Notes under the pieces: model-generated
Seen by the model: only the letters and a program-made list of their open reading frames with translations
Database searches by the model: none
What the model was told of the DNA's origin: nothing
Part shown: positions 2,959-38,203 of the stretch, in pieces
Layout: each line of letters opens with the position of its first letter
How positions within the stretch are numbered: the first letter of the stretch is position 1
Program-made: the position numbers and the translations under genes
Virus record (IMG/VR): IMGVR_UViG_3300045988_093140
Length of the DNA: 38,358 nucleotides
Strand: one strand, 5' to 3'
Origin: a virus
Taxonomy: Duplodnaviria; Heunggongvirae; Uroviricota; Caudoviricetes

Positions 2959-5516
2959 CGTCCACCTCCGGAGAACAGACCACCATCGCGCATCTGCCCG
3001 GTCACAACATCCATTGCCGCCTTACGGGCTACGTCATAAACAGCCTTCAGTGCCTGTGGCCCTATCTGACCGTTCGTGCCGTCGTTGTTAATCACCACAT
3101 GGTTATTCTGCTCAAACGTCCCGGACGCCTGCGACCGGCTGTCTGCCATGCTGCCCGGTGTACCGACATAACCGCCGGTGGCATAGCCGCGCATCAGCCG
3201 GTAGAGATTCCCCACGCCAATCCGGCTGGTTGCCTCCTTCGTGAAGACAAACTCACCACGGTGAACAATCCCCGCTGGCTCATATTTGCCGCCGGTTCCC
3301 GTAAATCCCCCGGTCGCAAAATGGAATTTCGCCGCAGCGGCCTGAATGGCTGTACCACCTGACGCTGATGCTCCACCACTGGCAGCACCGCCAATGGCGC
3401 TGCCGATACTCCCGACAATCCCCACCATTGCCTGCTTAAGCAGAATTTCTGTCATCATGGACAGCACGGAACGGGTGAAGCTGCGCCAGTTCTGTTCACT
3501 GCCGGTCAGCATCGCCGCCATATTCTGTGCAATACCATCAAAGGTCTGCGTGGCAGCACTTTTAACCTGCGACATACTGTCCGTGGCGCTCTCTTCCCAC
3601 TCACTCCAGCCGGACTTCAGGCCTGCCATCCAGCTCCCGCGAAGCTGGTCTTCAGCCGCCCAGGTCTTTTTCTGCTCTGACATGACGTTATTCAGCGCCA
3701 GCGGATTATCGCCATACTGTTCCTTCAGACGCTGTTCCGTGGCTTCCCGCGCTGCCTGCCGGTCAGTCAGCCCCCGGCTTTTCGCATCAATGGCGGCCCG
3801 TTTTGCCCGTTGCTGCTGTGCGAATTTATCCGCCTGCTGCGCCAGCGCATTCAGGTGCTCCTGATACGTGACCTTATCGCCAAGTGCAGCCAGCTGGCGC
3901 TTGTACTCCAGCGTCTCGTCTTTATGCGCCAGCAGGGATTTCTCCTGTGCAGACAGCTGGCGACGTTGCGCCGCCTCCTCCAGTACCGCGAACTGATTCT
4001 CCGCCTTCCACAAATCCCGGCGCTGCTGGCTGATTTTCTCATTCGCTCCGGCATGCTTCTCCAGCGTCCGGAGTTCTGCCTGAAGCGTCAGCAGGGCAGC
4101 ATGAGCACTGTCTTCCTGACGATCGCCCGCAGACACCTTCACGCCGGACTGCTTCGGCTTTTTCAGCGTAGCTTCATAATCCTTTTTCGCTGCCGCCATC
4201 AGCGTGTTGTAATCTGCCTGCAGGATTTTCCCGTCTTTCAGTGCCTTATTCAGTTCTTCCTGACGGGCGGTATATTTCTCCAGCGGCGTTTGCAGGCGTT
4301 CGTAAGCCTTCTGCGCCTCTTCGGTATATTTCAGCCGTGACGCTTCGGTATCGCTCTGCTGCTGCGCATTTTTGTCCTGTTGACTCTGCTGCTCAGCCTT
4401 CTTTCGGGCGGCTTCAAGCGCAAGACGGGCCTTTTCACGATCATCCCAGTAACGCGCCCGCGCTTCATCGTTAACAAAATAATCATCCTTGCGCAGATTC
4501 CAGATGTCGTCTGCTTTCTTAAACGCAGCCTCTGCCTTAATCAGCATCTCCTGAGCGGTATCAGGACGACCAATATCCAGCACCGCATCCCACATGGATT
4601 TGAATGCCCGTGCTGTCCTGTCTGCCCAGGTCTCCAGCGTGCCCATGTTCTCTTTCAGGCGGCGGGTCTGGTCATCAAACCCTTTCGTTGCGGCCTCGTT
4701 CGCCGCCTGCAATGCCCCGGCTTCATCGCCGGAACGCTGCAACTGAGCAACATACGCAATCTGCTCCGCCGTCACGTTATGGAACTGGCGTGCCATCGCC
4801 GTCAGCCCCGACGTCGGGTCTGTGGTCAGCTTCCCGAAGGCTTCAGCGACCTTGTCCACCTCCACGCCGGATGCAGAGGAGAAACGCGCCACACTCTGGC
4901 TGATGGACGCAATCTGAGCCTCACCGCTTACCCCCGCCTTAACCAGTGCGCTGAGTGACTCGCTGGTCTGGTTAAACGTCAGCCCTGCCGCCTGCCCGGC
5001 TCTGGACAGGACCAGCATGCGATCTGCCGTCAGTCCCGCCTGATTGCCGGAAAGGACCAGCGTTTTGTTGAAATCGGACAGGGTTGAGTTGCCCTGATAC
5101 CAGGCATACGCCAGCGCACCGGTCGCCACCGCCAGCGAGGTGGCCCCCACCATCGGCAGGGTGATCGCACCGGCAAGCCCCCTGAACATGGGGATCATCC
5201 CGCCGAAGGAGTCCTTAACCTGACCACCCTGTTGCAGCAGGATCAGCCACGGACTTTGCCCGCCTGCAAGCTGCGTGGCCACGTCGGTGAACTGTGCAGG
5301 CAGCATACGCATGGCGGCTTTATACTGCCCGACGGAAATCCCCGCTTTCTGTGCAGCCAGCGCCTGTCGGCTCAGCGACTGTTCAACGACTGCCGCTGTT
5401 TTTTTCGCATCACTTTCCGTACCGGAAAAATGACGCCTGACTCTGGCCATCTGCTCGTCAAATCTGGCCGCATCCAGACTCAAATCAACGACCAGATCGC
5501 CTACCGGTTCAGCCAT
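2955..5516 (-). CDS. H: Tail tape-measure protein H
   Basis: 853 aa (lambda gpH length), long Ala/Gln-rich coiled-coil core, position between T and M. Confidence 0.95.
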   Translation of the reverse strand: MAEPVGDLVVDLSLDAARFDEQMARVRRHFSGTESDAKKTAAVVEQSLSRQALAAQKAGISVGQYKAAMRMLPAQFTDVATQLAGGQSPWLILLQQGGQVKDSFGGMIPMFRGLAGAITLPMVGATSLAVATGALAYAWYQGNSTLSDFNKTLVLSGNQAGLTADRMLVLSRAGQAAGLTFNQTSESLSALVKAGVSGEAQIASISQSVARFSSASGVEVDKVAEAFGKLTTDPTSGLTAMARQFHNVTAEQIAYVAQLQRSGDEAGALQAANEAATKGFDDQTRRLKENMGTLETWADRTARAFKSMWDAVLDIGRPDTAQEMLIKAEAAFKKADDIWNLRKDDYFVNDEARARYWDDREKARLALEAARKKAEQQSQQDKNAQQQSDTEASRLKYTEEAQKAYERLQTPLEKYTARQEELNKALKDGKILQADYNTLMAAAKKDYEATLKKPKQSGVKVSAGDRQEDSAHAALLTLQAELRTLEKHAGANEKISQQRRDLWKAENQFAVLEEAAQRRQLSAQEKSLLAHKDETLEYKRQLAALGDKVTYQEHLNALAQQADKFAQQQRAKRAAIDAKSRGLTDRQAAREATEQRLKEQYGDNPLALNNVMSEQKKTWAAEDQLRGSWMAGLKSGWSEWEESATDSMSQVKSAATQTFDGIAQNMAAMLTGSEQNWRSFTRSVLSMMTEILLKQAMVGIVGSIGSAIGGAASGGASASGGTAIQAAAAKFHFATGGFTGTGGKYEPAGIVHRGEFVFTKEATSRIGVGNLYRLMRGYATGGYVGTPGSMADSRSQASGTFEQNNHVVINNDGTNGQIGPQALKAVYDVARKAAMDVVTGQMRDGGLFSGGGR

Positions 5517-5943
5517 ACCGGACTCCTCCTGCGATCCCTTCTGATACTGTCATCAGCATTACGTCATCCTCCGTCATTTCAGCCACATCCGGGGAAGCGG
5601 AGATAACTTCATTCCCGTCCGGACCAAAGCGGACGCCTCCGGCAAGCCCTGCCGCTTTCTGCATCAGCACATCATCTTCAGGCTCTTCGTCAGCCTCGCG
5701 CCGGTTCAGCAGACTGAAATCCAGCGGATGCATATCCGGATCGCTGAAAAACAGGCTGAGTACGGTGTACGTCAGCCCGGAAAAGTGCATATCCAGCAGA
5801 ACATCATGAAAATAATGGGTACTGTAAAAGCGGTGCCAGTCGGCGTACTCCGTGGATGACATCCCGGCAAGCATGGCGCGCCAGTCGGGTCGCCCCATCT
5901 CTCGCGCCAGTTTCAGGGCAAAACTCAGCTCACCGTCGAACAC
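5509..5943 (-). CDS. T: Tail assembly chaperone T frame (expressed only as G-T fusion by -1 frameshift)
   Basis: 144 aa ORF overlapping the G 3' end, same length and arrangement as lambda T. Confidence 0.85.
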   Translation of the reverse strand: MFDGELSFALKLAREMGRPDWRAMLAGMSSTEYADWHRFYSTHYFHDVLLDMHFSGLTYTVLSLFFSDPDMHPLDFSLLNRREADEEPEDDVLMQKAAGLAGGVRFGPDGNEVISASPDVAEMTEDDVMLMTVSEGIAGGVRYG

Positions 5944-22369: not shown

Positions 22370-22573
22370 TCAATGATGTGAACGCTCAACAGCGATAGTT
22401 TTCTGACAATGCTGGGCAATCTCTCGCGACATGTTGATGAGTCGTGAAACCTCACCAATATGTAGGCTGGCTTCTGGAGAAGCCAGGGTGACGCTAACCA
22501 GATCCAGAACGGCGTCAATATCTCTTAAATTTGAATCGAGTTGTTCAAGAGTTGATACGGCTGCTTCAGACAT
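22370..22573 (-). CDS. Hypothetical small protein
   Basis: 67 aa ORF. Confidence 0.4.
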   Translation of the reverse strand: MSEAAVSTLEQLDSNLRDIDAVLDLVSVTLASPEASLHIGEVSRLINMSREIAQHCQKTIAVERSHH

Positions 22574-22655
22574 TAAATCTCATACCATTTAACTAAAAAA
22601 GGTTATTTATACTGTATAAAATTACAGGGTAAAACTCAAACTTTACGGTCAATTT

Positions 22656-31200: not shown

Positions 31201-32206
31201 TGAAGAAGGCACGCTGAAATTCTATTTCGATGGTGCTCGAGACAAAGTTCGCCGCTATGAAACAATGCTTTTAGATGAGGTAACAGCTCGTCGTTACGAC
31301 CGGGAAGAAGCAGCCATCAATTTTACCTACGCATACCGTCAGGCGGGACAGTGGCAATATTTTGTAGTGACCGCGATGACTCGCGAGCAGGCTGATGATG
31401 TCTTTAAAACTAAATTCCCTGGAATAATCGACTACAAGGTAAAAGCTACTCCTACTGTTGAAGTCGGGGCGCGCGGTTTCTATGCGCTTAAATCAGCAAC
31501 TCTCCGGCAGTACTTTATCGACTGCGGTATCAACCCTGAGACTATGACCGGCGAGGCGACTCAGGAGCGTCTCAAATTCGCTCGAGATAACCTCATGACA
31601 GCCGAACGCCGTGACCTGTTGAATAACGTTCTGCACATTGGTGGTTTTATGACGCCAAAAGGGAAGCCTAAAGTGCCGGAAGCGTTGTTTAAAAACATTT
31701 GCGACTCTCTTGGCCTTAAAACAGGTAAACGTCGTGGCAGAGACGGCGATAAGCGTCCAACCTTGCGTTTTGTTGAGCCTGAATCAGCGGCATTTATGCT
31801 GGATATTCTTGCTCAGCGTCAGAAAGATGGCCTAACCCTGAAAACGCGCAAAGCCGAGAAGACCGCCATCGAAATGGATCGCGATTTGGATCTCAATATA
31901 TATATGGATGATAAAACGCGATCCACAAATGAGCAGGTTCAAAACGCCCCTCATTCAGTAATTTCTGAGGCTTTGGCAGTGTTGCCGGTGGCTGTACCTG
32001 AGTCCTGGGCTATGAGTGCGCTTTCCTGTGAGGAGCTGGCCACTATGTCATCATGGTCATCAGCCAGCATAGCTATGACGTTTGCATCTCTGTACCTAAC
32101 AGAGTTCATGGATCACTTGTCCAGTAATGAACTGCGGCGGTTACGTGAATATATTACCGGGAATAGCCCATGCAGCTACGAAGAGCAGGGCGCTTTCTAT
32201 GGGTAA
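28211..32206 (+). CDS. repA: Multifunctional replication protein, primase (Toprim) plus P-loop helicase; N15 RepA-like
   Basis: 1331 aa; Toprim motifs VTEGFATGASIW and CALDNDRKS; Walker A GMGSGKST and Walker B FGFDEAT. Confidence 0.8.
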   Translation: MTLNDFYADRFGSDPFSLIEAARDELTELAQMAGINWPACSDNIQLNPRGGVERYSSYNKTSPEALEKSLKGRVEIYSRLEHSKGIDYPFINFVHKGSDAGSWSGFSFLFSEYRREQQRNNATVVAQPEEERERIERQAEARRRREEQKRINDLKNNQMDHERLLGWLAFHSAWEHAQAEDGSWPYAIKKGIRDVFSSCDVRRVTSHDSAKWSRGPTTYMAIPLAHLDGRYDGRIVGWQRIDKQGGKYQTSAVTSGDFVGACFVIGELKGAQNIAVTEGFATGASIWLATKKDKRFDAVVVAVSANNMVHVVEQLVNMYPAAKITCALDNDRKSATEGKGNTGLRTGYEILSKFNDVRCVYPTFEDDPQMECSDFNDLHKLRGLRETARQLFATANRLKTGTDLLSLTLNRLKTIKRDNRRTFAKELLRAVDIGMLTCPVPNSPSDLFNMFCIVLREMGLENIYRATVKDHIARRLNKKCRIAQAPRSFSERITDPNKRPQHITYKRFDTSVMTDDVLKYVQSLQGIVIVRAGMGSGKSTGLLRPLMHSSERGISVAHRVSLIGGLWEMMTEGKGVKADILHYQDPGYQEMAPYASKLTICINSIVKNCWQPLMRQHDYFGFDEATQGLRAVLSGRAMENPVAVFNTLIDALARTEQHPIMVDADANDLLVDLAELAMKRREELGLPAWLQIHVIELPVDVRNRETGEPIRVFYTEKDRIMTEVVKAVSDGEKIMLATDSSTFAEDVTATLRMHFPGKKFLCVNQKNKPEPEVEAFTNQPKKMVKKYDGLIYSPSISSGVSIEQKHFDRHFGMFCGEVVPSDAVQMLRRDRTAKEFIIGFDKARAKRETDPQKIERAFAQALLATAGMNGELTDVVFDGDRISMGVANTDFTRMKIKAAAIEASARNDYASNMICIMHSDGYKVSPLATDYAANDIGKDLRKEARDIVWEQTLDLHLNTETPQESEREELLKKRALTLEEQAKLVRWDIENELKLPVEEGTLKFYFDGARDKVRRYETMLLDEVTARRYDREEAAINFTYAYRQAGQWQYFVVTAMTREQADDVFKTKFPGIIDYKVKATPTVEVGARGFYALKSATLRQYFIDCGINPETMTGEATQERLKFARDNLMTAERRDLLNNVLHIGGFMTPKGKPKVPEALFKNICDSLGLKTGKRRGRDGDKRPTLRFVEPESAAFMLDILAQRQKDGLTLKTRKAEKTAIEMDRDLDLNIYMDDKTRSTNEQVQNAPHSVISEALAVLPVAVPESWAMSALSCEELATMSSWSSASIAMTFASLYLTEFMDHLSSNELRRLREYITGNSPCSYEEQGAFYG
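28572..28589. repeat. sopC-like palindrome, copy 6 (one outer mismatch), inside repA coding sequence
   Basis: aTGCGACCGTGGTCGCAC; encodes ATVVAQ in RepA. Confidence 0.55.
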
Positions 32207-32264
32207 TCAGTGGATATTATCGTATGTGGAAATCGTGATTTTTCGGTGAACGGGGAGTAAAAAT

Positions 32265-32594
32265 ATGTCTACTACTGCATTTTTGGACAAACTTGATTAC
32301 CGTCAGCTGAAGTTCTGCCGGGATGAATGCGATCGACGCATTAAGGCTATTCAGGAAGAAGAGAAGAAAGTTGCCTGGGAGATCACTGATGGTGGGATTA
32401 ATTTGGGTTGGTTCAGGACAGAAAACTACGTGAAAGCGGCTGAGCGTTTAGCTTCTTTAGCTTCTGAATTGTGGGAGGAGGAGCCAGATAAGGAACACCC
32501 ATCTACCCATTTGGGGCTTAATCTGGCAATTGAGGGGCATCATTTACCATTATCAGAGTATAACGCTTTGTTTGCTGATGGTGAGTGGGGTTAA
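32265..32594 (+). CDS. Hypothetical protein
   Basis: 109 aa ORF, ATG preceded by GGGGAG. Confidence 0.5.
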   Translation: MSTTAFLDKLDYRQLKFCRDECDRRIKAIQEEEKKVAWEITDGGINLGWFRTENYVKAAERLASLASELWEEEPDKEHPSTHLGLNLAIEGHHLPLSEYNALFADGEWG

Positions 32595-32596
32595 AA

Positions 32597-32992
32597 ATGG
32601 CTGTTCAATCATACAAATACGAATCCCCTTTGGATAAGGGATACATTCGTATCAAGTTAAGTCGTTCTCAGCATAAGGCTATTTTTAAGGTAAGGAAAAT
32701 TCGCATATTGGATGCGTATGCGTATTACTACAACGGTGAAAATGTTGTTGTTGAACACTTTCTTGCACGATGGTTTGTAGCTCTGATTTTTGTCCCTCTC
32801 CTGTTAATTGGTACTTTTGTGGATGGTTTTCCTAGTACATGGCGGGAGATAAAGAAAGGCCTATTCCCGCGTAAGTACGGCAGATTTTCGCAAGATAGCT
32901 GGCGAGTTATACCTGGTAAACATTCTGTAGATGAGCAACCGATTGTTGATTACTGGTTGAAGTATATGGTTGATACTCATAAAGCCGACTAA
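32597..32992 (+). CDS. Hypothetical membrane protein
   Basis: Start at ATG 32597 (MAVQSYKYE...); hydrophobic segment WFVALIFVPLLLIGTFV. Confidence 0.5.
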   Translation: MAVQSYKYESPLDKGYIRIKLSRSQHKAIFKVRKIRILDAYAYYYNGENVVVEHFLARWFVALIFVPLLLIGTFVDGFPSTWREIKKGLFPRKYGRFSQDSWRVIPGKHSVDEQPIVDYWLKYMVDTHKAD

Positions 32993-33119
32993 GTGCGCGG
33001 CATATTAAATGTTTATATATTGTTAATTTTACTTCACATTAAGCACACACTGTATTGATATACTCATACAATATGAAGGCTAAATATGTATGTTTTGCTT
33101 TTAAGGTGATGGAGATTTT

Positions 33120-33476
33120 ATGAAAGTAATTAGCATAAAAATCATTTTGATTTTATCAATTATTGCTCTTGCTATTGTATTTTTCTGGCCTGAATCTAAT
33201 AAAGGCCCAGAGTGCTATAAGGTTAGTGATGAACAGGCAAGAGAATTTGTAAAAAATGACTTTTTGAAAAAAATAACGCGTTGGAATAACGATGTACAAC
33301 TTCTCGGTACAGAAGCCCCAAAAATTACGTGGGAAAAGATTGAAAGAAGCTTAACAGATGTTAAAGATGAAAAAACGCTTCTCGTCCCATTTAAAGCCGA
33401 AGGCCCGGAAGGTAAGAGAATGTATTATGGAATGTACCATTGCAAGGAAGGTTATGTTGAATATGCAAATGATTGA
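33120..33476 (+). CDS. cmi: Colicin M immunity protein
   Basis: 118 aa, N-terminal TM anchor, recognised as Cmi from the translation; convergent with cma. Confidence 0.85.
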   Translation: MKVISIKIILILSIIALAIVFFWPESNKGPECYKVSDEQAREFVKNDFLKKITRWNNDVQLLGTEAPKITWEKIERSLTDVKDEKTLLVPFKAEGPEGKRMYYGMYHCKEGYVEYAND

Positions 33477-33498
33477 TACATCGGTATAAAGACTGCAT

Positions 33499-33526
33499 AA
33501 AAAAGGCCGGAATCCCGGCCTTTTTA
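33499..33526. terminator. Bidirectional rho-independent terminator between convergent cmi and cma
   Basis: AAAAAA-GGCCGG-aatc-CCGGCC-TTTTT. Confidence 0.65.
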
Positions 33527-34342
33527 TTATCGCTTGCCACTTTCTTTAATGTGAATTTCGCCAGGAAGTAGTATCTGATACTCTTTACCAGAGAACATCG
33601 CCCCGAGCCTTGTAAGAGACTCTCCGATTACGCCACGATGAGTGCTGGCATTGAAGTCATACTTGTCGTTATACGAGCGAACAACGCCATTATAGGTCCA
33701 TGAGCCATTAGCGGAGACAGTTAAAGTACCTTCTGTTTTCAGCGTGATATTACCAAGATATGCGCCGGTAATAACATTATAATCGCCAGTGGCGTGTGTG
33801 AATTTTGTAGAAATAGGGAATGTGCCTACTACACCAGATTTTACAATATCTCTTATCTGATTAATTTTCATCGGAGAAATTTTGAGACCAATATTTGCGA
33901 TATTAACGCTTCGGTCTGCACCATTACCCCATAAATAGTGTGCAAGCGCCACAATTGGTGTTGTGACATTACCGCTCATTTGTTTCATATTCATTGAGCG
34001 ATAGTCATATTTATTTGGCGCAGGTTTAGCTAAGTGGTAGGCGTCATAAACACTTATTCCGCGGTGAAGGATAAGGTTTCTGTCAGCGTTACAGAAGTAG
34101 GCAATATTTGTTGACATAATTTGTAATGTCAGGGGATCGCTGGCACCGTGTTTTTTGATGTAGTCCTCAAGCTGAGTTAGAGCCTGAATACACATGTTTG
34201 GGCTCTGGAAAAAGCTGTAAACCACCTGGACTAAAAGGGGGCCAGAACCAGGCACGTGTGGTGCTGAGAGAGAAAATGCGCCATTACCATAACTCGGTAA
34301 GTTAGTTGATGGTGATGGAGCTGTCACAACGATAGTATCCAT
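33527..34342 (-). CDS. cma: Colicin M (lipid II-cleaving bacteriocin)
   Basis: 271 aa; recognised as colicin M along the whole length, including N-terminal TonB-box-like DTIVV and the C-terminal region with HATGDYNVITGAY. Confidence 0.85.
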   Translation of the reverse strand: MDTIVVTAPSPSTNLPSYGNGAFSLSAPHVPGSGPLLVQVVYSFFQSPNMCIQALTQLEDYIKKHGASDPLTLQIMSTNIAYFCNADRNLILHRGISVYDAYHLAKPAPNKYDYRSMNMKQMSGNVTTPIVALAHYLWGNGADRSVNIANIGLKISPMKINQIRDIVKSGVVGTFPISTKFTHATGDYNVITGAYLGNITLKTEGTLTVSANGSWTYNGVVRSYNDKYDFNASTHRGVIGESLTRLGAMFSGKEYQILLPGEIHIKESGKR

Positions 34343-34403
34343 ATCAAAAACCCTTATAAGTTAATGAAATAACAGACATACAGGTTTAATCGCTGCATAA
34401 ACA

Positions 34404-34419
34404 CTGTGTTTTTATACAG
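34404..34419. promoter_or_regulatory. LexA (SOS) box upstream of cma
   Basis: CTGTGTTTTTATACAG fits CTGT-N8-ACAG, 62-77 bp upstream of the cma start and overlapping a plausible promoter. Confidence 0.55.
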
Positions 34420-34554
34420 CAAAATCAGGATAGCCCGAGCCGCCCCATTAGTAAAGTAAAGTGTAAATAACATTTATATTTTAATGTAATAAAAATGCTA
34501 CGTTTTGTTGTATATTATTCTAATGGTAGTTCAGGCGGGGCCGACTTCGGTCGG

Positions 34555-34606
34555 GCCGGTTTCTCCGTTTACCGGTATTGCGAACCCTGCCTGGGCTATC
34601 ACCATA
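34555..34606 (+). repeat. c4-like repeat, copy 1, upstream of icd/ant (candidate antisense-RNA or target element)
   Basis: gccggtttctccgtttaccggtattgcgaaccctgcctgggctatcaccata, preceded by hairpin CCGAC-TTCG-GTCGG. Confidence 0.35.
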
Positions 34607-34867
34607 ATATCGTTTATCTTCTAATCATTTGTTTAAGCAAACTATAAAAACACCTATCCCCGTGACTGGTCACAGGGTAAAATGTCTTTGCAAATTATTG
34701 ACGTGTGCGTCGTTTTGACGGTAAAGTTATTCCGCTGCGGTAAATCCCGTAGCCGGGCGTAGGAACCCGAGTAAATGAAGCGCACAACACGCGCCAGCGT
34801 GTTTTTTTGTGTGTAAAATCTGCGTACACCAAATTTATGGTGGCTCAGATGGGGCAGCTTTTAGCTG

Positions 34868-34920
34868 GCCGGTTTCTTCGTTTACCGGTATTCCTACCCC
34901 CGTCTGGGCTACCGCCATAT
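34868..34920 (+). repeat. c4-like repeat, copy 2
   Basis: gccggtttcttcgtttaccggtattcctacccccgtctgggctaccgccatat; 5' 25 nt identical to copy 1 except one base. Confidence 0.35.
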
Positions 34921-34971
34921 AGAGCGTAGGAACTCTGGTGGTAGCACGACCAATTAAACGGAGTGCATACC

Positions 34972-35136
34972 ATGTTCAAATTCAAATTTGCGGCAGTCGT
35001 TCGCACAGACAAAAAGTCCCACATTCATCATCTTTCCACCATCGCGTCATCTGAACGGGAAGCTCGTCGCCAGTTCGCCAGCCGGTTTGTCCTGGTATTG
35101 TCTGCCCGTATTCCGGTGCGCGAGGTGGCAGTATGA
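34972..35136 (+). CDS. Icd-like small protein (host cell-division inhibitor family); not in the ORF track
   Basis: 54 codons, GGAG RBS; MFKFKFAAVVRTDKKSHIHHLSTIASSEREARRQFASRFVLVLSARIPVREVAV; stop overlaps the next start (ATGA). Confidence 0.55.
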   Translation: MFKFKFAAVVRTDKKSHIHHLSTIASSEREARRQFASRFVLVLSARIPVREVAV

Positions 35137-35363
35137 ATCAGGTAAAAATGAACACTGTTGGCCTGCTGGAATCGTTGGATGAACGTCTGGCTCAGGTCTA
35201 TGCGCTCGTATCATCAGCCCATCGGACAGTATCCAGCTGTGAGGCGTCGATTTATCTATCAGAAGCCGGGAAGCTTCTTCAAATCGCGTGTGAGTTAACT
35301 CATGAAGCACAGGGGTATTCCGCGTCGCTCTCGTCGCAATTGCTGGGTAAGGAGGCTGAATGA
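35133..35363 (+). CDS. Hypothetical small protein in the icd/ant operon
   Basis: 76 aa, start and stop overlap neighbours. Confidence 0.5.
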   Translation: MNQVKMNTVGLLESLDERLAQVYALVSSAHRTVSSCEASIYLSEAGKLLQIACELTHEAQGYSASLSSQLLGKEAE

Positions 35364-36136
35364 GCGCGTTAGCAGTCTTTTCCTTTCAGGAAGAGCATCA
35401 GGTTCGTGTAGTGATGATTAACGGCGAACCGTGGTTTGTTGCATCTGATGTGTGTATGGCGGCGGGTATTGATTCTACGGCCACCAGAAAGTTGGATGAG
35501 GACGAAAAGGGTCTGCATTTAATGCAGACCCCTGGTGGATACCAGAATGTTTCAATCATCAACGAGTCAGGTCTATACACCCTGATCCTCCGCTGCCGTG
35601 ACGCTGTTAAACCGGGCACGATTGCATGGCGGTTTCGTAAATGGGTAACGAACGAGGTCCTGCCCTCTATTCGCAAGAATGGAGAGTACGTTTACGTCGA
35701 GCCTGAGCCAATGCGAGCAGCAGAGCCGTTGAACTGGAGGCAGAAGGAGTATCTGCGAGGGCTGATTAACGATATTGCACAAAGTTTTCAGTATCGAAAT
35801 GCCTGGATTAGCGGTGTATGGTTGGCTTTGCGTCGGGCGTGTCGTAATCCATCCCCGAACCCCATAACGGTTGATGATTTACCAGCAATTACGGCAGAAC
35901 TGCGCCGGATTTTAACGGCTGCTGAGTCGGCATTGGGGAACATGCGCACGTATGAACGAGAGTTGTTGCGTGATGTTGTTCGTGGGGGTAGGCGGAGTAT
36001 GTCGTGTGGTGATTTGCCCATCACCGATATTAACTCTGATCTGGAAAAGGCGTTACCCGCGCATTTTGAACTGGCAGTTCAAAAACTTGAGCAGTTATCC
36101 GCGCAGCTAAAGCCAGCAGAAATCACCAATAAATAG
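35360..36136 (+). CDS. Antirepressor, Bro-N/KilA-N domain
   Basis: 258 aa; N-terminal Bro-N-like FQEEHQVRVVMINGEPWFVASDVCMAAGI. Confidence 0.75.
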   Translation: MSALAVFSFQEEHQVRVVMINGEPWFVASDVCMAAGIDSTATRKLDEDEKGLHLMQTPGGYQNVSIINESGLYTLILRCRDAVKPGTIAWRFRKWVTNEVLPSIRKNGEYVYVEPEPMRAAEPLNWRQKEYLRGLINDIAQSFQYRNAWISGVWLALRRACRNPSPNPITVDDLPAITAELRRILTAAESALGNMRTYERELLRDVVRGGRRSMSCGDLPITDINSDLEKALPAHFELAVQKLEQLSAQLKPAEITNK

Positions 36137-36307
36137 GGTTGGCCAGCCCGAATTTATGCCCTTCTCAGAGAAGGGAAGCTTCGCAGTCGGGGCGGTGATG
36201 TCTGTGGTTGCAGCCGCGTTTCCTCCGTTACTTCTGCCCTTTGCAGGGGGTGGGCGAGGCAGGCCACACAACAAGGCACCGATAATTCGGTGCCTTTACC
36301 GTATGCT

Positions 36308-38203
36308 TTATCCGAAATATGTCAGCCATGCTAACTGCATTGCTGACATAGGGCTGTTTGCACTGCCGGACCACGCATAATTCTGGCCATTATAATGAAA
36401 CTCAACAACGTATGAGCCATCACCAATATTTCTCACAGGCTTAAATACCGGCTTAGATACAGGTGAAGAAGGCGCTGGCGGTTGCTGTTCTTCTACGCTC
36501 TCTTCCTCTTCCTCTTCCTCTATCTCAATTTCGTCGTCATCCAGATCGTCATCCTCTGATAATTCATCCGTCTGTTCAGGTATTGCTTCCAGCTCTTCTT
36601 CGTCAGGCATAACGATTTCTGGAGTATCTATTTTCAGCTGCCATTGTCCATTTTCGCCAACAAATTGCCCCAGAGCATCAGCAGCAAATTCCAGGTATCG
36701 ACTAATCATTGTTGGGCTAAATTTGAATGCTCTTAGAGTGCTGTTCGTGATTTTTATAGAGGGGTCCTGTTCTACCAGCTGCTTAACTGTGTTATGCAGA
36801 CGAACCCCGGCATCTCCTCTGGCGAATCCAGGCATTTCGTCATCAAGCTGCTGCAATGCTTCCAGCCTGGTATTTTCGTTTCCAGTATTTGGCCTCCATG
36901 TCTTTGAGAAGTTGGCCAGCTTGAATTGTTTATAGTGTAATTGAGTGTTTTCATCGTCATGGCCTAAAATTTCCATAAAGAAAACATCTTCATCTACATT
37001 TTTCCAACGGGGATCTACGCGGAAAAACATTTCATACGCAATACGGGCATAAATAGCACGACTATCTTTATAAACACGGCGATTGTCATTGAAAAATGAT
37101 TTAACCCATGGATTAAAAGCCTTTGCTAATATGGCATTAATACGTCCGTTTTCAGACCGCGTGTCGTTATTTCCGTAACCCATAACGACTTCATCAAAAT
37201 CAGATGCTGCTGGGCATGAGCGAAGTACATTTATTAGATAAACAAACGTTTTTGCTTCGCATAATGTATATATTTTTCTGGTTACATCATCAGTAGTTCT
37301 TTTTTTCGCCTGACCTAAAAAATCAACGGTATACTTACCAGAGACAGTAAATGTACCTTGATACATAATCTCAATCATTCGTCTTCCTGATAATGCGGCA
37401 AGAGCAAATGCCAAAGGAGCCATACCTGAACGAGTGTTTAGATTATTTAATGTAGCAGGGCTATTTATAATATCGTAAATAGCTTGCATATAATTAGGGT
37501 AGTCAATGACTACTACGTTACGTTTCTTATTGTGTAGTACGTCCGCCCATCGTTGCTGGATAGATGCGCGTTCGGCAGGGCTTAGTTTGAGATGATAGAG
37601 AATCTCATGGTTAACCTTTAACTGATTCAACTCCTCAAGCAAGGCTGACCCTTGCTGTAGTAATTTATATAAATAATCGCGCTTATCTTTCCAATTATCG
37701 CCAGTTAAATCAGAAATGGCAAATTGCCATTCTTTATATTTATTTGATAACTTTATTAACTTATTATTATTTTTATTATCACCAATTCTGATATTAGATA
37801 AATCTTCGGACAGATGAATAATTAATTTTAATTTTGCCTGTAAAGATGACATTCTACGGCGAATATCGGCAGCAGGTAGAGAGAGCCATGACAATAGCTC
37901 CTCATTATATAAAGGATATTTTTCAGATAGTCGATGTATATTTTTTTCAAAACTATGATGAAGTTTATCATCAAACCGTTTTCTGGCCCTGCTCATATAG
38001 GAGTTGAATGTGTTGGCTGTAATTCTCTTTTCTAATCCTTTTCCCCTAAACTTTCGCTTATCATTAAATAATGTATTTTTAAATTTTAATGCAACGGCCT
38101 TTATTTTTTTTGTTTTCTCTCCTTGAGGACGGTCAGAGTTATCTATTGACTCAACATCGCTAACAAGTGAGTTTATTAATTCACCGATTTTTACTTTGCT
38201 CAT
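36308..38203 (-). CDS. telN: Protelomerase (telomere resolvase), N15 TelN-like
   Basis: 631 aa, recognised as TelN end to end (MSKVKIGELIN...RKFRGKGLEKRITANTFN...RVYKDSRAIYARIAYEMFF..., acidic C-terminal linker); AGGAGA RBS. Confidence 0.9.
   Translation of the reverse strand: MSKVKIGELINSLVSDVESIDNSDRPQGEKTKKIKAVALKFKNTLFNDKRKFRGKGLEKRITANTFNSYMSRARKRFDDKLHHSFEKNIHRLSEKYPLYNEELLSWLSLPAADIRRRMSSLQAKLKLIIHLSEDLSNIRIGDNKNNNKLIKLSNKYKEWQFAISDLTGDNWKDKRDYLYKLLQQGSALLEELNQLKVNHEILYHLKLSPAERASIQQRWADVLHNKKRNVVVIDYPNYMQAIYDIINSPATLNNLNTRSGMAPLAFALAALSGRRMIEIMYQGTFTVSGKYTVDFLGQAKKRTTDDVTRKIYTLCEAKTFVYLINVLRSCPAASDFDEVVMGYGNNDTRSENGRINAILAKAFNPWVKSFFNDNRRVYKDSRAIYARIAYEMFFRVDPRWKNVDEDVFFMEILGHDDENTQLHYKQFKLANFSKTWRPNTGNENTRLEALQQLDDEMPGFARGDAGVRLHNTVKQLVEQDPSIKITNSTLRAFKFSPTMISRYLEFAADALGQFVGENGQWQLKIDTPEIVMPDEEELEAIPEQTDELSEDDDLDDDEIEIEEEEEEESVEEQQPPAPSSPVSKPVFKPVRNIGDGSYVVEFHYNGQNYAWSGSANSPMSAMQLAWLTYFG

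Follow-up and report, generated by a model that had tools for sequence, protein, structure and literature searches.

RNAs of the C4 family are processed small RNAs of ~77-80 nucleotides (nt) with an RNase P-generated 5' end and a CCA-like 3' end. In phage N15 the small RNA reportedly stops transcription early, at the terminator of the leader, and AntA is said to inactivate the CB repressor; this immA locus and its CA RNA are said to go back to Ravin, Svarchevsky and Deho (1999, Mol Microbiol 34:980), a work cited in later N15-related papers. The immI locus of P1 and P7, with its c4 antisense RNA, icd and ant1/2, was reportedly described by Citron and Schuster in 1990. N15 immA comprises icd, antA and antB under 'a small processed RNA' (PMC4488713). 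According to the supplementary material of a C4 survey, the a' and b' elements of P1 c4 pair with a1b1 upstream and a2b2 downstream (PMC2864571, supplement 1), and P1 and P7 are heteroimmune through small differences in immI (PMC6906374). The CI RNA of P4, processed from a leader, pairs with seqA and seqC on both of its sides, leading to premature termination, and Gifsy-1 encodes IsrK, orf45 (STnc1160) and AnrP (Hershko-Shalev et al. 2016, PMC4825925). IsrK-C4 modules were earlier suggested to act between elements (PMC3632133), and Klebsiella telomere phages carry telocins, which are pore-former bacteriocins (PMC12042878). Here we analysed a viral stretch of 38,358 nt (IMG/VR record IMGVR_UViG_3300045988_093140), referred to in full as the window, in which an immA-type operon contains a cognate C4 gene (copy 2) and is preceded by a second, orphan C4 gene (copy 1) that belongs to a colicin M cargo module.

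A reading of this DNA from its letters alone (the sequence-only reading) had described two tandem repeats with different preceding hairpins upstream of an icd-like open reading frame (ORF), and had proposed a c4-like antisense-RNA immunity circuit ahead of an icd-ant operon. A repeat search found the repeats at 34554-34606 and 34867-34919 (53 nt, 85% identical, 313 nt apart), within 1 nt of where they had been placed. Their shared 5' half reads GGCCGGTTTCT(C/T)CGTTTACCGGTATT, as described, and the differing hairpins are real (CCGACTTCGGTCGG in one, CAGCTTTTAGCTG in the other). The repeats are the 3' two-thirds of longer units and the preceding hairpin is helix P2 of the same RNA, so that the true repeat unit measures 87-88 nt (34519-34606 and 34833-34919). 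The Rfam scan that had been proposed as a check was run for the C4 antisense RNA (RF01695; gathering threshold 45 bits) and returned both units on the plus strand over model positions 1-87 of 87, with 77.5 bits for copy 1 (E 1e-13) and 73.6 bits for copy 2 (E 1e-12). Over the whole window exactly three Rfam matches reached their gathering score, all on the plus strand, namely the two C4 genes and one isrK. We also built a C4 covariance model from nine sequences and scanned it across 67 protelomerase-anchored loci; copy 1 scored 96.1 bits against it. Both copies fold alike into a minimum free energy structure that equals the family consensus, a 17-bp closing stem around two hairpins, with folding energies of -45.2 kcal/mol (z -4.6) for copy 1 and -44.4 kcal/mol (z -5.6) for copy 2; none of 200 shuffles was as stable in either case. 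CCA lies directly 3' of the closing stem in both copies. Among 33 distinct C4 sequences, 99.5% of alignment cells were paired and nine pairs had changed on both sides (0/500 shuffles as high), and sliding the alignment by 1-3 columns left at most 48% of cells paired. The full-length matches and folds are far beyond chance, and together with the icd-like and antirepressor-like genes they support the proposed immunity circuit.

The TelN-like protelomerase identifies the replicon as a telomere phage, and the window is an N15-like linear plasmid (telomere) phage. In a similarity search the region matched Escherichia phages YDC107_1, PhiR46_1 and N15 as well as several Klebsiella telomere phages. 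The nearest relatives by TelN (96-97% identical) are L013 and L016-L018 (L numbers are our labels for loci). The gene order Pa, RNA, icd, antA and antB beside telN is syntenic with N15 and six relatives, and the telomere replicon together with orthologues of N15 gp32, gp31 and gp30 identifies the locus as N15 immA (anti-immunity). P1 immI, which the sequence-only reading had taken as its model, shares the c4 logic; the closest system is the N15 immA/CA RNA locus, with an isrK(seqA) leader of the P4/N15 type. The downstream genes overlap start to stop as that reading had noted, with ATGA at 35133-35136 and again at 35360-35363; the first is Icd-like by NCBIfam NF033153 (67 bits vs a cut-off of 25) and the third indeed carries a Bro-N domain.

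The promoter Pa (34698-34727) and the isrK leader with its terminator (34734-34807) lie between the two copies, so only copy 2 lies within the operon. Pa is the sole promoter-like site in 34300-36400 (position weight matrix (PWM) score 9.4), and its position is conserved among N15-type relatives. The leader ends in an intrinsic terminator (34786-34803) followed by a T-run, with copy 2 another 30 nt on. The family c4-a1b1 (RF03163) gave 36.6 bits on the leader, below its threshold of 46.7 (E 1.5e-7). The repeats are copies of the RNA gene itself and not repeated target sites; the targets are short b and a boxes. In the leader these are b1 (GTAGGAA, 34759-34765) and a1 (GTAAATGAAG, 34771-34780). 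When the leader is folded, b1 falls in the hairpin 2 loop and a1 stays unpaired, a predicted geometry suited to loop-loop recognition. A 30-nt leader stretch is 77% complementary to copy 2, which as RNA displays a' CUUCGUUUA and b' UUCCUAC. The b' has exact complements GTAGGAA on both sides (at 34759 and 34926), and the a-site runs measure 9 bp on each side. The a2 box covers the icd Shine-Dalgarno sequence GGAG (34960-34963), 8 nt before the ATG at 34972. The sequence-only reading had proposed to test base pairing between the repeats and the icd leader: copy 2 finds its complements in b1/a1 and b2/a2, and the b' of copy 1 has no partner in this phage.

The same arrangement recurs among relatives. 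We aligned copy 2 and its surroundings with the single C4s, leaders and downstream regions of N15, YDC107_1, PhiR46_1, NAR688, KpLi5, Kpn74 and P4. The a' element (loop of the second hairpin) and the b' element (open joint 3' of the loop) were visible in every aligned phage and co-varied in each with its own leader b1-a1 and pre-icd b2-a2. All 54 canonical C4 matches of telomere-phage loci had an exact 7-nt b' complement within 80 nt downstream, and all 54 had a-site runs of at least 7-8 bp on both sides. The specificity elements form discrete, reassorting alleles (at least six b' and ~15 a'). This suggests that immA specificity is a fast-evolving heteroimmunity determinant among telomere phages. 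Copy 2 itself is identical to the C4 of the single-copy relatives L013 and L016-L018, and it is an ordinary C4 in an ordinary N15-type immA operon, already known. The anatomy and the complementarity of this canonical circuit are evident here. By homology with N15 and P4 (PMC4825925; PMC3632133), we infer C4 processing, the mechanism of leader termination and the block of icd. Pa would transcribe the isrK leader up to its terminator, and read-through transcripts would contain copy 2, which would be cut out as a small stable RNA. Its a' and b' would then bind b1/a1 of the leader and b2/a2 ahead of icd, and this pairing would keep icd and the antA-like and antB-like genes off through premature termination and a translational block, as in N15 and P4.

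Copy 1 is not equivalent to copy 2: it precedes the promoter, has neither a leader nor target boxes of its own, carries a foreign b' and is part of the colicin M cargo. It sits 92 nt upstream of the Pa -35 box, outside the operon. No isrK or a1b1 element was found upstream of it by Rfam on 34300-35000 at E<=10, and a degenerate leader at that place was rejected on the same scan. The 135 nt upstream and the 80 nt downstream contain no b complement, and no a-site run exceeded 5. The cis-targets that are a feature of the C4 family accompany copy 2 and are missing from copy 1. By sequence and structure copy 1 is a member of the C4 family, yet it is not a cis-embedded regulator of the icd-ant operon. 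Its nearest relative is the canonical C4 of PhiR46_1 (91.5% identity), with similarity that spans exactly 34523-34604; in the flanks there was no similarity to PhiR46_1 beyond the RNA, and no leftover leader. Copy 1 has the b' allele of PhiR46_1 and Kpn74, UUGCGAA, which is unlike the b' of copy 2 at 4/7 positions; its a', CUCCGUUUA, departs from the PhiR46_1 allele by a single U-to-C change. All six stem substitutions between copy 1 and the PhiR46_1 C4 keep a standard pair. The coordinates of the locus are collected in Table 1.

Table 1. Features of the colicin M cargo module and the immA locus in the window.
Feature	Coordinates	Strand	Details
Cargo module in the repA-telN variable slot	32999..34617		cmi promoter region, cmi, cma, SOS-box region, orphan C4 at right end
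cmi, colicin M immunity protein (YebF-like fold)	33120..33476	+	Pfam YebF 32.4 bits; annotated cmi in matching plasmids
cma, colicin M	33527..34342	-	Pfam Colicin_M 481.6 bits, E 8e-145
LexA-box consensus CTGTGTTTTTATACAG	34404..34419		directly downstream of minus-strand promoter-like TTTACT-17-TATCCT (34455 to 34427) facing cma
Orphan C4 gene, copy 1	34519..34606	+	a' loop 34560-34571, core CTCCGTTTA 34563-34571; b' joint TTGCGAA 34578-34584
Promoter Pa	34698..34727	+	TTGACG-18-TAAAGT; predicted start ~34734, the first base of the isrK match
isrK/seqA-type leader	34734..34807	+	Rfam isrK RF01394, 61.8 bits vs gathering 50
Canonical (cognate) C4 (CA-RNA) gene, copy 2	34833..34919	+	a' core CTTCGTTTA 34876-34884; b' TTCCTAC 34891-34897
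Downstream target region	34924..34971	+	b2 GTAGGAA 34926-34932; a2 TAAACGGAG 34955-34963
icd-like gene	34972..35136	+	54 aa; NCBIfam phage_ICD_like 67 bits; 93% identical to N15 gp32 (Icd)
antA-like gene	35133..35363	+	76 aa; 62% identical to N15 gp31; PHROG 10889 'anti-repressor', PHROG 6301; start overlaps icd stop
antB-like Bro-N gene	35360..36136	+	258 aa; 73% identical to N15 gp30; Pfam Bro-N 67.3 bits; PHROG Ant families
Protelomerase (TelN-like)	36308..38203	-	631 aa; four TelK/ResT Pfam domains, 87-168 bits

Homology to cargo-free relatives ends at 32984 and restarts at 34618, 12 nt after the end of copy 1. The gap in the relatives' homology holds cmi, cma, the LexA region and copy 1, and copy 1 is therefore the right end of the cargo module. 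L205 has the same left cargo edge, GGCATATTAAATG, but preceded by other sequence. The cma-cmi DNA is 86.5% identical to pColBM-type plasmids. The arrangement of colicin M in a telomere phage was absent from complete E. coli RefSeq genomes, PLSDB plasmids and GenBank phage records. An index of public assemblies lists the exact Cma protein in 141 blocks, of which our look-up returned nine places; the window itself is ENA contig ERZ653795 NODE_7. All nine are telomere phages with the same gene order, and in all nine contigs an orphan C4 lies beside cma at the same position.

These orphans fall into three types. In type I (the window and five others) the orphan a'/b' pair CTCCGTTTA/TTGCGAA accompanies a canonical CTTCGTTTA/TTCCTAC; in type II (L200 and L203) an orphan GTCGTTTGG/TTGAGAA accompanies CTTCGTTTG/TTCTCAC; and in type III (L205) an orphan CTCCGTTTA/TTCTCAC accompanies GTCGTTTGG/TTGAGAA. 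The orphan allele never equals the canonical C4 of the same genome in the three lineages. The three orphan alleles belong to classes that are canonical in other telomere phages (PhiR46_1, YDC107_1 and NAR688/L021), and all three fold correctly. A three-way alignment of the lineages from cmi to antA was scored for the fraction of variable columns. This fraction was 0.6% in cmi and cma, 2.2% upstream of the orphan, 45.3% in the orphan core (34538-34590), about 3% in the spacer to Pa and in Pa itself, 22-35% in isrK, the canonical C4 and b2-a2, and 1.3-1.8% in icd and antA. The orphan core and the canonical module thus form two islands of variation, both of which are specificity determinants.

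We lean towards reading the locus as an N15-like secondary-immunity (immA) circuit supplemented by one orphan C4 that would serve as a trans-acting cross-immunity RNA. The step to trans action, which we regard as a serious possibility short of probable, builds on the b' UUGCGAA, which is unable to pair with the phage's own b boxes GUAGGAA and matches PhiR46_1-type boxes. The resident C4 would not restrain a superinfecting relative with another immA specificity, whose antirepressor would then be made. If the resident also held an orphan C4 of the intruder's class, that RNA would silence in trans the icd-ant operon of the co-infecting or superinfecting phage, and both the resident prophage and its host would be spared anti-repression. 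Such cross-immunity would be consistent, by analogy, with the heteroimmunity that P1 and P7 derive from small immI differences.

Several points weigh against this reading. The predicted duplexes of copy 1 do favour it, being stronger with the PhiR46_1 leader (-19.8 and -24.8 kcal/mol) than with the window's own (-16.8 and -19.0 kcal/mol), on which copy 2 reaches -25.4 and -23.0 kcal/mol, but these are RNAduplex energies on unstructured 28-mers, which discriminate poorly. The orphan carries CUCC instead of CUUC, which creates a mismatch at a1 of its presumed target. A promoter scan and a PWM scan for copy 1 gave only a background-level candidate: the best sigma-70 site, ATAAAA-16-TATATT, ends at 34516, 6-7 nt before the RNA, and scores 7.2 against a background of 5.7 +/- 2.0, and the neighbouring cma is transcribed divergently. 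The mechanism ascribed to the N15 CA RNA is drawn from a paper title and secondary citations. Heterotypy in 3/3 lineages is expected by chance with many alleles circulating. The flanks are ~99% identical between lineages, which leaves little time for decay and makes the intact structure weak evidence of selection. Finally, the variable orphan core could have arisen by neutral gene conversion from the canonical C4s of co-resident phages.

Most of these points also speak for a different account, which we consider rather unlikely, in which the orphan is a non-functional by-product of recombination that is not expressed or has no relevant target. The cargo would have been spliced beside or inside an immA leader, one C4 would have been kept, and its core would at times have been overwritten by gene conversion. 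The missing leader and convincing promoter of copy 1 fit this account, as do the expected heterotypy and the uninformative lack of decay. The type II orphan core is identical to the canonical YDC107_1 core over 50 nt, and the cargo junction of L205 falls inside an immA leader, exactly at the icd ATG. Other observations are harder to reconcile with a by-product. Homology to other C4 genes coincides precisely with the extent of the RNA (34523-34604) and includes no remnant of a leader, and the orphan is present and correctly folded in 9/9 cma contigs with all three alleles. The differences concentrate in the specificity determinants and mirror those of the canonical module. Types I and III share a' and differ in b', which indicates that the elements reassort as units. 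Independent extra copies also occur in L024 and L033, the same extras in both beside different canonical alleles.

These extra copies, two C4 genes each directly upstream of Pa in L024 and L033, bring both loci to three C4s on the same strand (L024 3448-3954, L033 3279-3782). The extras lie ~11 nt apart and begin ~10 nt after a rho-independent terminator, an arrangement that resembles tRNA arrays. Neither extra has local targets, and their alleles, a' TATCGCATGGG with b' TTCTCAC and a' TTGTGCGTTC with b' TTCCTAC, are distinct from one another as well as from that of the cognate copy. Neither TATCGCATGGG nor TTGTGCGTTC was found as a canonical a' allele among the sampled telomere phages. For the ORFs beside the extra C4s of L024, Pfam gives only a domain of unknown function. 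N15, YDC107_1, PhiR46_1, NAR688, KpLi5, Kpn74 and P4 each have a single isrK and a single C4 with no extra copy, the 54 canonical C4 matches in other telomere-phage loci likewise come without a copy like the orphan of the window, and the closest relatives L013 and L016-L018 likewise had no C4 besides the one identical to copy 2. A broader reading, which we put forward as a tentative possibility, is that telomere phages may carry one to three swappable orphan C4 genes per genome as a repertoire of trans-acting immunity RNAs against competitors. These would often travel with cargo, might also target P4-like satellites, and would have a'/b' cassettes that turn over rapidly under selection.

L205 (GCA_037911005.1) has a third C4 within 5200-5800, with a complete Pa-isrK leader, upstream of cmi. 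The b2 box downstream of this C4 is degenerate (GTGATAA), and the cargo junction lies exactly at the position of the icd ATG, so that cmi may be read there from an immA-type promoter. An inverted duplication centred on the telomere site, which gives two protelomerase genes and C4 matches in mirror image, is how many contigs of telomere phages and 60-75 kb records labelled 'circular plasmid' have been assembled (L020/L075, L036, L037, L053/L072, NZ_CP019258.1 and NZ_CP126957.1). Such assemblies can mimic gene duplication; records with two C4 places per E. coli plasmid and opposite-strand double matches in IMG/VR loci were attributed to them and not counted as real double C4s. A gapped-pattern search for tandem C4 pairs in IMG/VR returned 120+ mostly chance matches, and the covariance-model filter left only the contig already known. 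No exact match to the a'/b' of copy 1 was found in IMG/VR or the JGI metagenomes, which is uninformative as these collections evidently lack the phage lineage.

The orphan may alternatively bear on its own phage. The copy 1 loop CTCCGTTTA is perfectly complementary to a2 (TAAACGGAG, 34955-34963) over the icd Shine-Dalgarno sequence, where the cognate copy 2 has a G.U. Orphans of types I and III carry CUCC in the a' loop and all canonical C4s of the same class carry CUUC, which is perfect to a1 with a G.U at a2, whereas CUCC is perfect to a2 and mismatched to a1. The CUCC orphans therefore look tuned to the translational site, the a2 that covers the Shine-Dalgarno sequence. The complementarity of the type I loop would allow the orphan to act as an auxiliary, Pa-independent repressor of its own icd-ant operon, pairing with a2 and beating the G.U of the cognate copy. 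We think this improbable, as the orphan b' has no partner in this phage and the orphan a' of types II and III mismatches their own a2, which excludes self-repression as a general role; small differences in the c4 region also suffice to separate P1 and P7 immunity (PMC6906374). A highly improbable option is that the orphan regulates another phage or cargo gene, such as ORF 32265-32594 or cma/cmi. In a window-wide scan its best plus-strand duplex (-30.6 kcal/mol) lies at 32200-32258, over the Shine-Dalgarno sequence of that ORF, but energies of -26 to -35 kcal/mol are also attained somewhere in the window by C4 alleles unrelated to it, and 5% of shuffled queries do as well as -30.6. This site, which is kept in relatives whatever their C4 allele, was rejected as a copy 1 target, and the orphan does not overlap the predicted 5' untranslated region of cma.

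The remaining observations concern the surroundings of the two C4 genes. The promoter-like site facing cma has a PWM score of 8.7, and the window contains three perfect LexA-box sites of the form CTGT-N8-ACAG (34404-34419, 22612-22627 and 3449-3464) vs 0.42 expected. The box next to the cma promoter-like site suggests that the colicin M gene may be under SOS control. The box at 22612-22627 precedes a minus-strand ORF of 67 aa (22370-22573), a possible counterpart of the N15 SOS-regulated antirepressor gene antC; BLASTP showed no similarity between this ORF and the 76-aa AntA-like protein, and the idea that they are paralogues was dropped. A near-perfect palindrome, CCCCGTGACTGGTCACAGGG, at 34659-34678 lies ~20 nt upstream of the Pa -35 box and also occurs in L024, L200 and L205 with the mismatches shifted. 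It may serve a repressor as operator, or it may terminate transcription that arrives from upstream. In public records the C4 RNA gene goes under protein annotations ('cA secondary immunity repressor', 'transcriptional repressor', an 'ash family protein' pseudogene, or Pfam Phage_ASH matches), as at L001 2717-3007 (N15 gene 32), L003 413-715 (cA), L196/L197 3962-4084 and L200 3384-3545; the genuine icd ORF has just 54 codons. The canonical circuit described here confirms an annotation that public records still get wrong.

Were the orphan expressed, a prophage could be armed with antisense RNAs that act on the anti-repressor switches of its rivals. An RNA that regulates its own phage would then have become a weapon or shield for competition among phages, packaged here with a bacteriocin for competition between bacteria. 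The broader repertoire reading, if true, would add to the classical immA circuit a defence between phages that is RNA-based and allele-specific. The system is easily testable because two short boxes, open to swaps and compensatory changes, determine specificity, and the natural allele series (at least six b', ~15 a' and three orphan types in near-identical backgrounds) gives ready specificity pairs.

Compared to P1/P7 immI (RF01695, RF03163), the locus has the same RNA family and the same logic, with one downstream site over the icd ribosome-binding site. It differs in the type of phage and in its antirepressor proteins, and in the window's family a2, not b2, covers the Shine-Dalgarno sequence. 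The literature surveyed describes no additional, foreign-specificity c4 in any P1-like element. By this analogy the locus is best said to work like P1 immI without being a member, and its replicon is N15-like, not P1-like. P4, whose CI RNA is seqB, also scores as isrK and C4 in Rfam; its circuit differs in that it controls replication genes, is the primary immunity and has a single CI gene. Gifsy-1 has the same isrK leader, ~30 nt of complementarity between IsrK and a downstream processed species of ~80 nt, and an antirepressor translationally coupled through a small ORF; unlike here, it is a lambdoid prophage with a single copy, and its short IsrK RNA is a trans activator. In the telocin loci, the same variable slot between repA and the protelomerase holds a bacteriocin and its immunity gene, and Kpn74 has pore-former genes there. 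The toxin in the window is instead colicin M, which degrades lipid II and is not a pore-former, and the cargo also brings an RNA gene; the telocin paper mentions neither C4 RNAs nor colicin M (PMC12042878). A leaderless, heterotypic, cargo-linked C4 with a hypervariable core is undescribed in what the Weinberg 2010 supplement, the IsrK and telocin papers and the secondary sources on P1 and N15 set out. The closest likeness is to N15 immA, which has the same replicon type with TelN adjoining, the same order of Pa, isrK-type leader and terminator, C4, icd, gp31 and gp30, and the same two Rfam families. N15 has a single C4 of another specificity (a' CTTCTTGTA, b' TTGAGAA) and no cargo beside Pa, whereas the window has, in addition, a heterotypic C4 that lacks a leader and is tied to cma-cmi. 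What this analysis adds is the split into a cognate and an orphan C4, together with population-level evidence that the specificity cassette of the orphan turns over.

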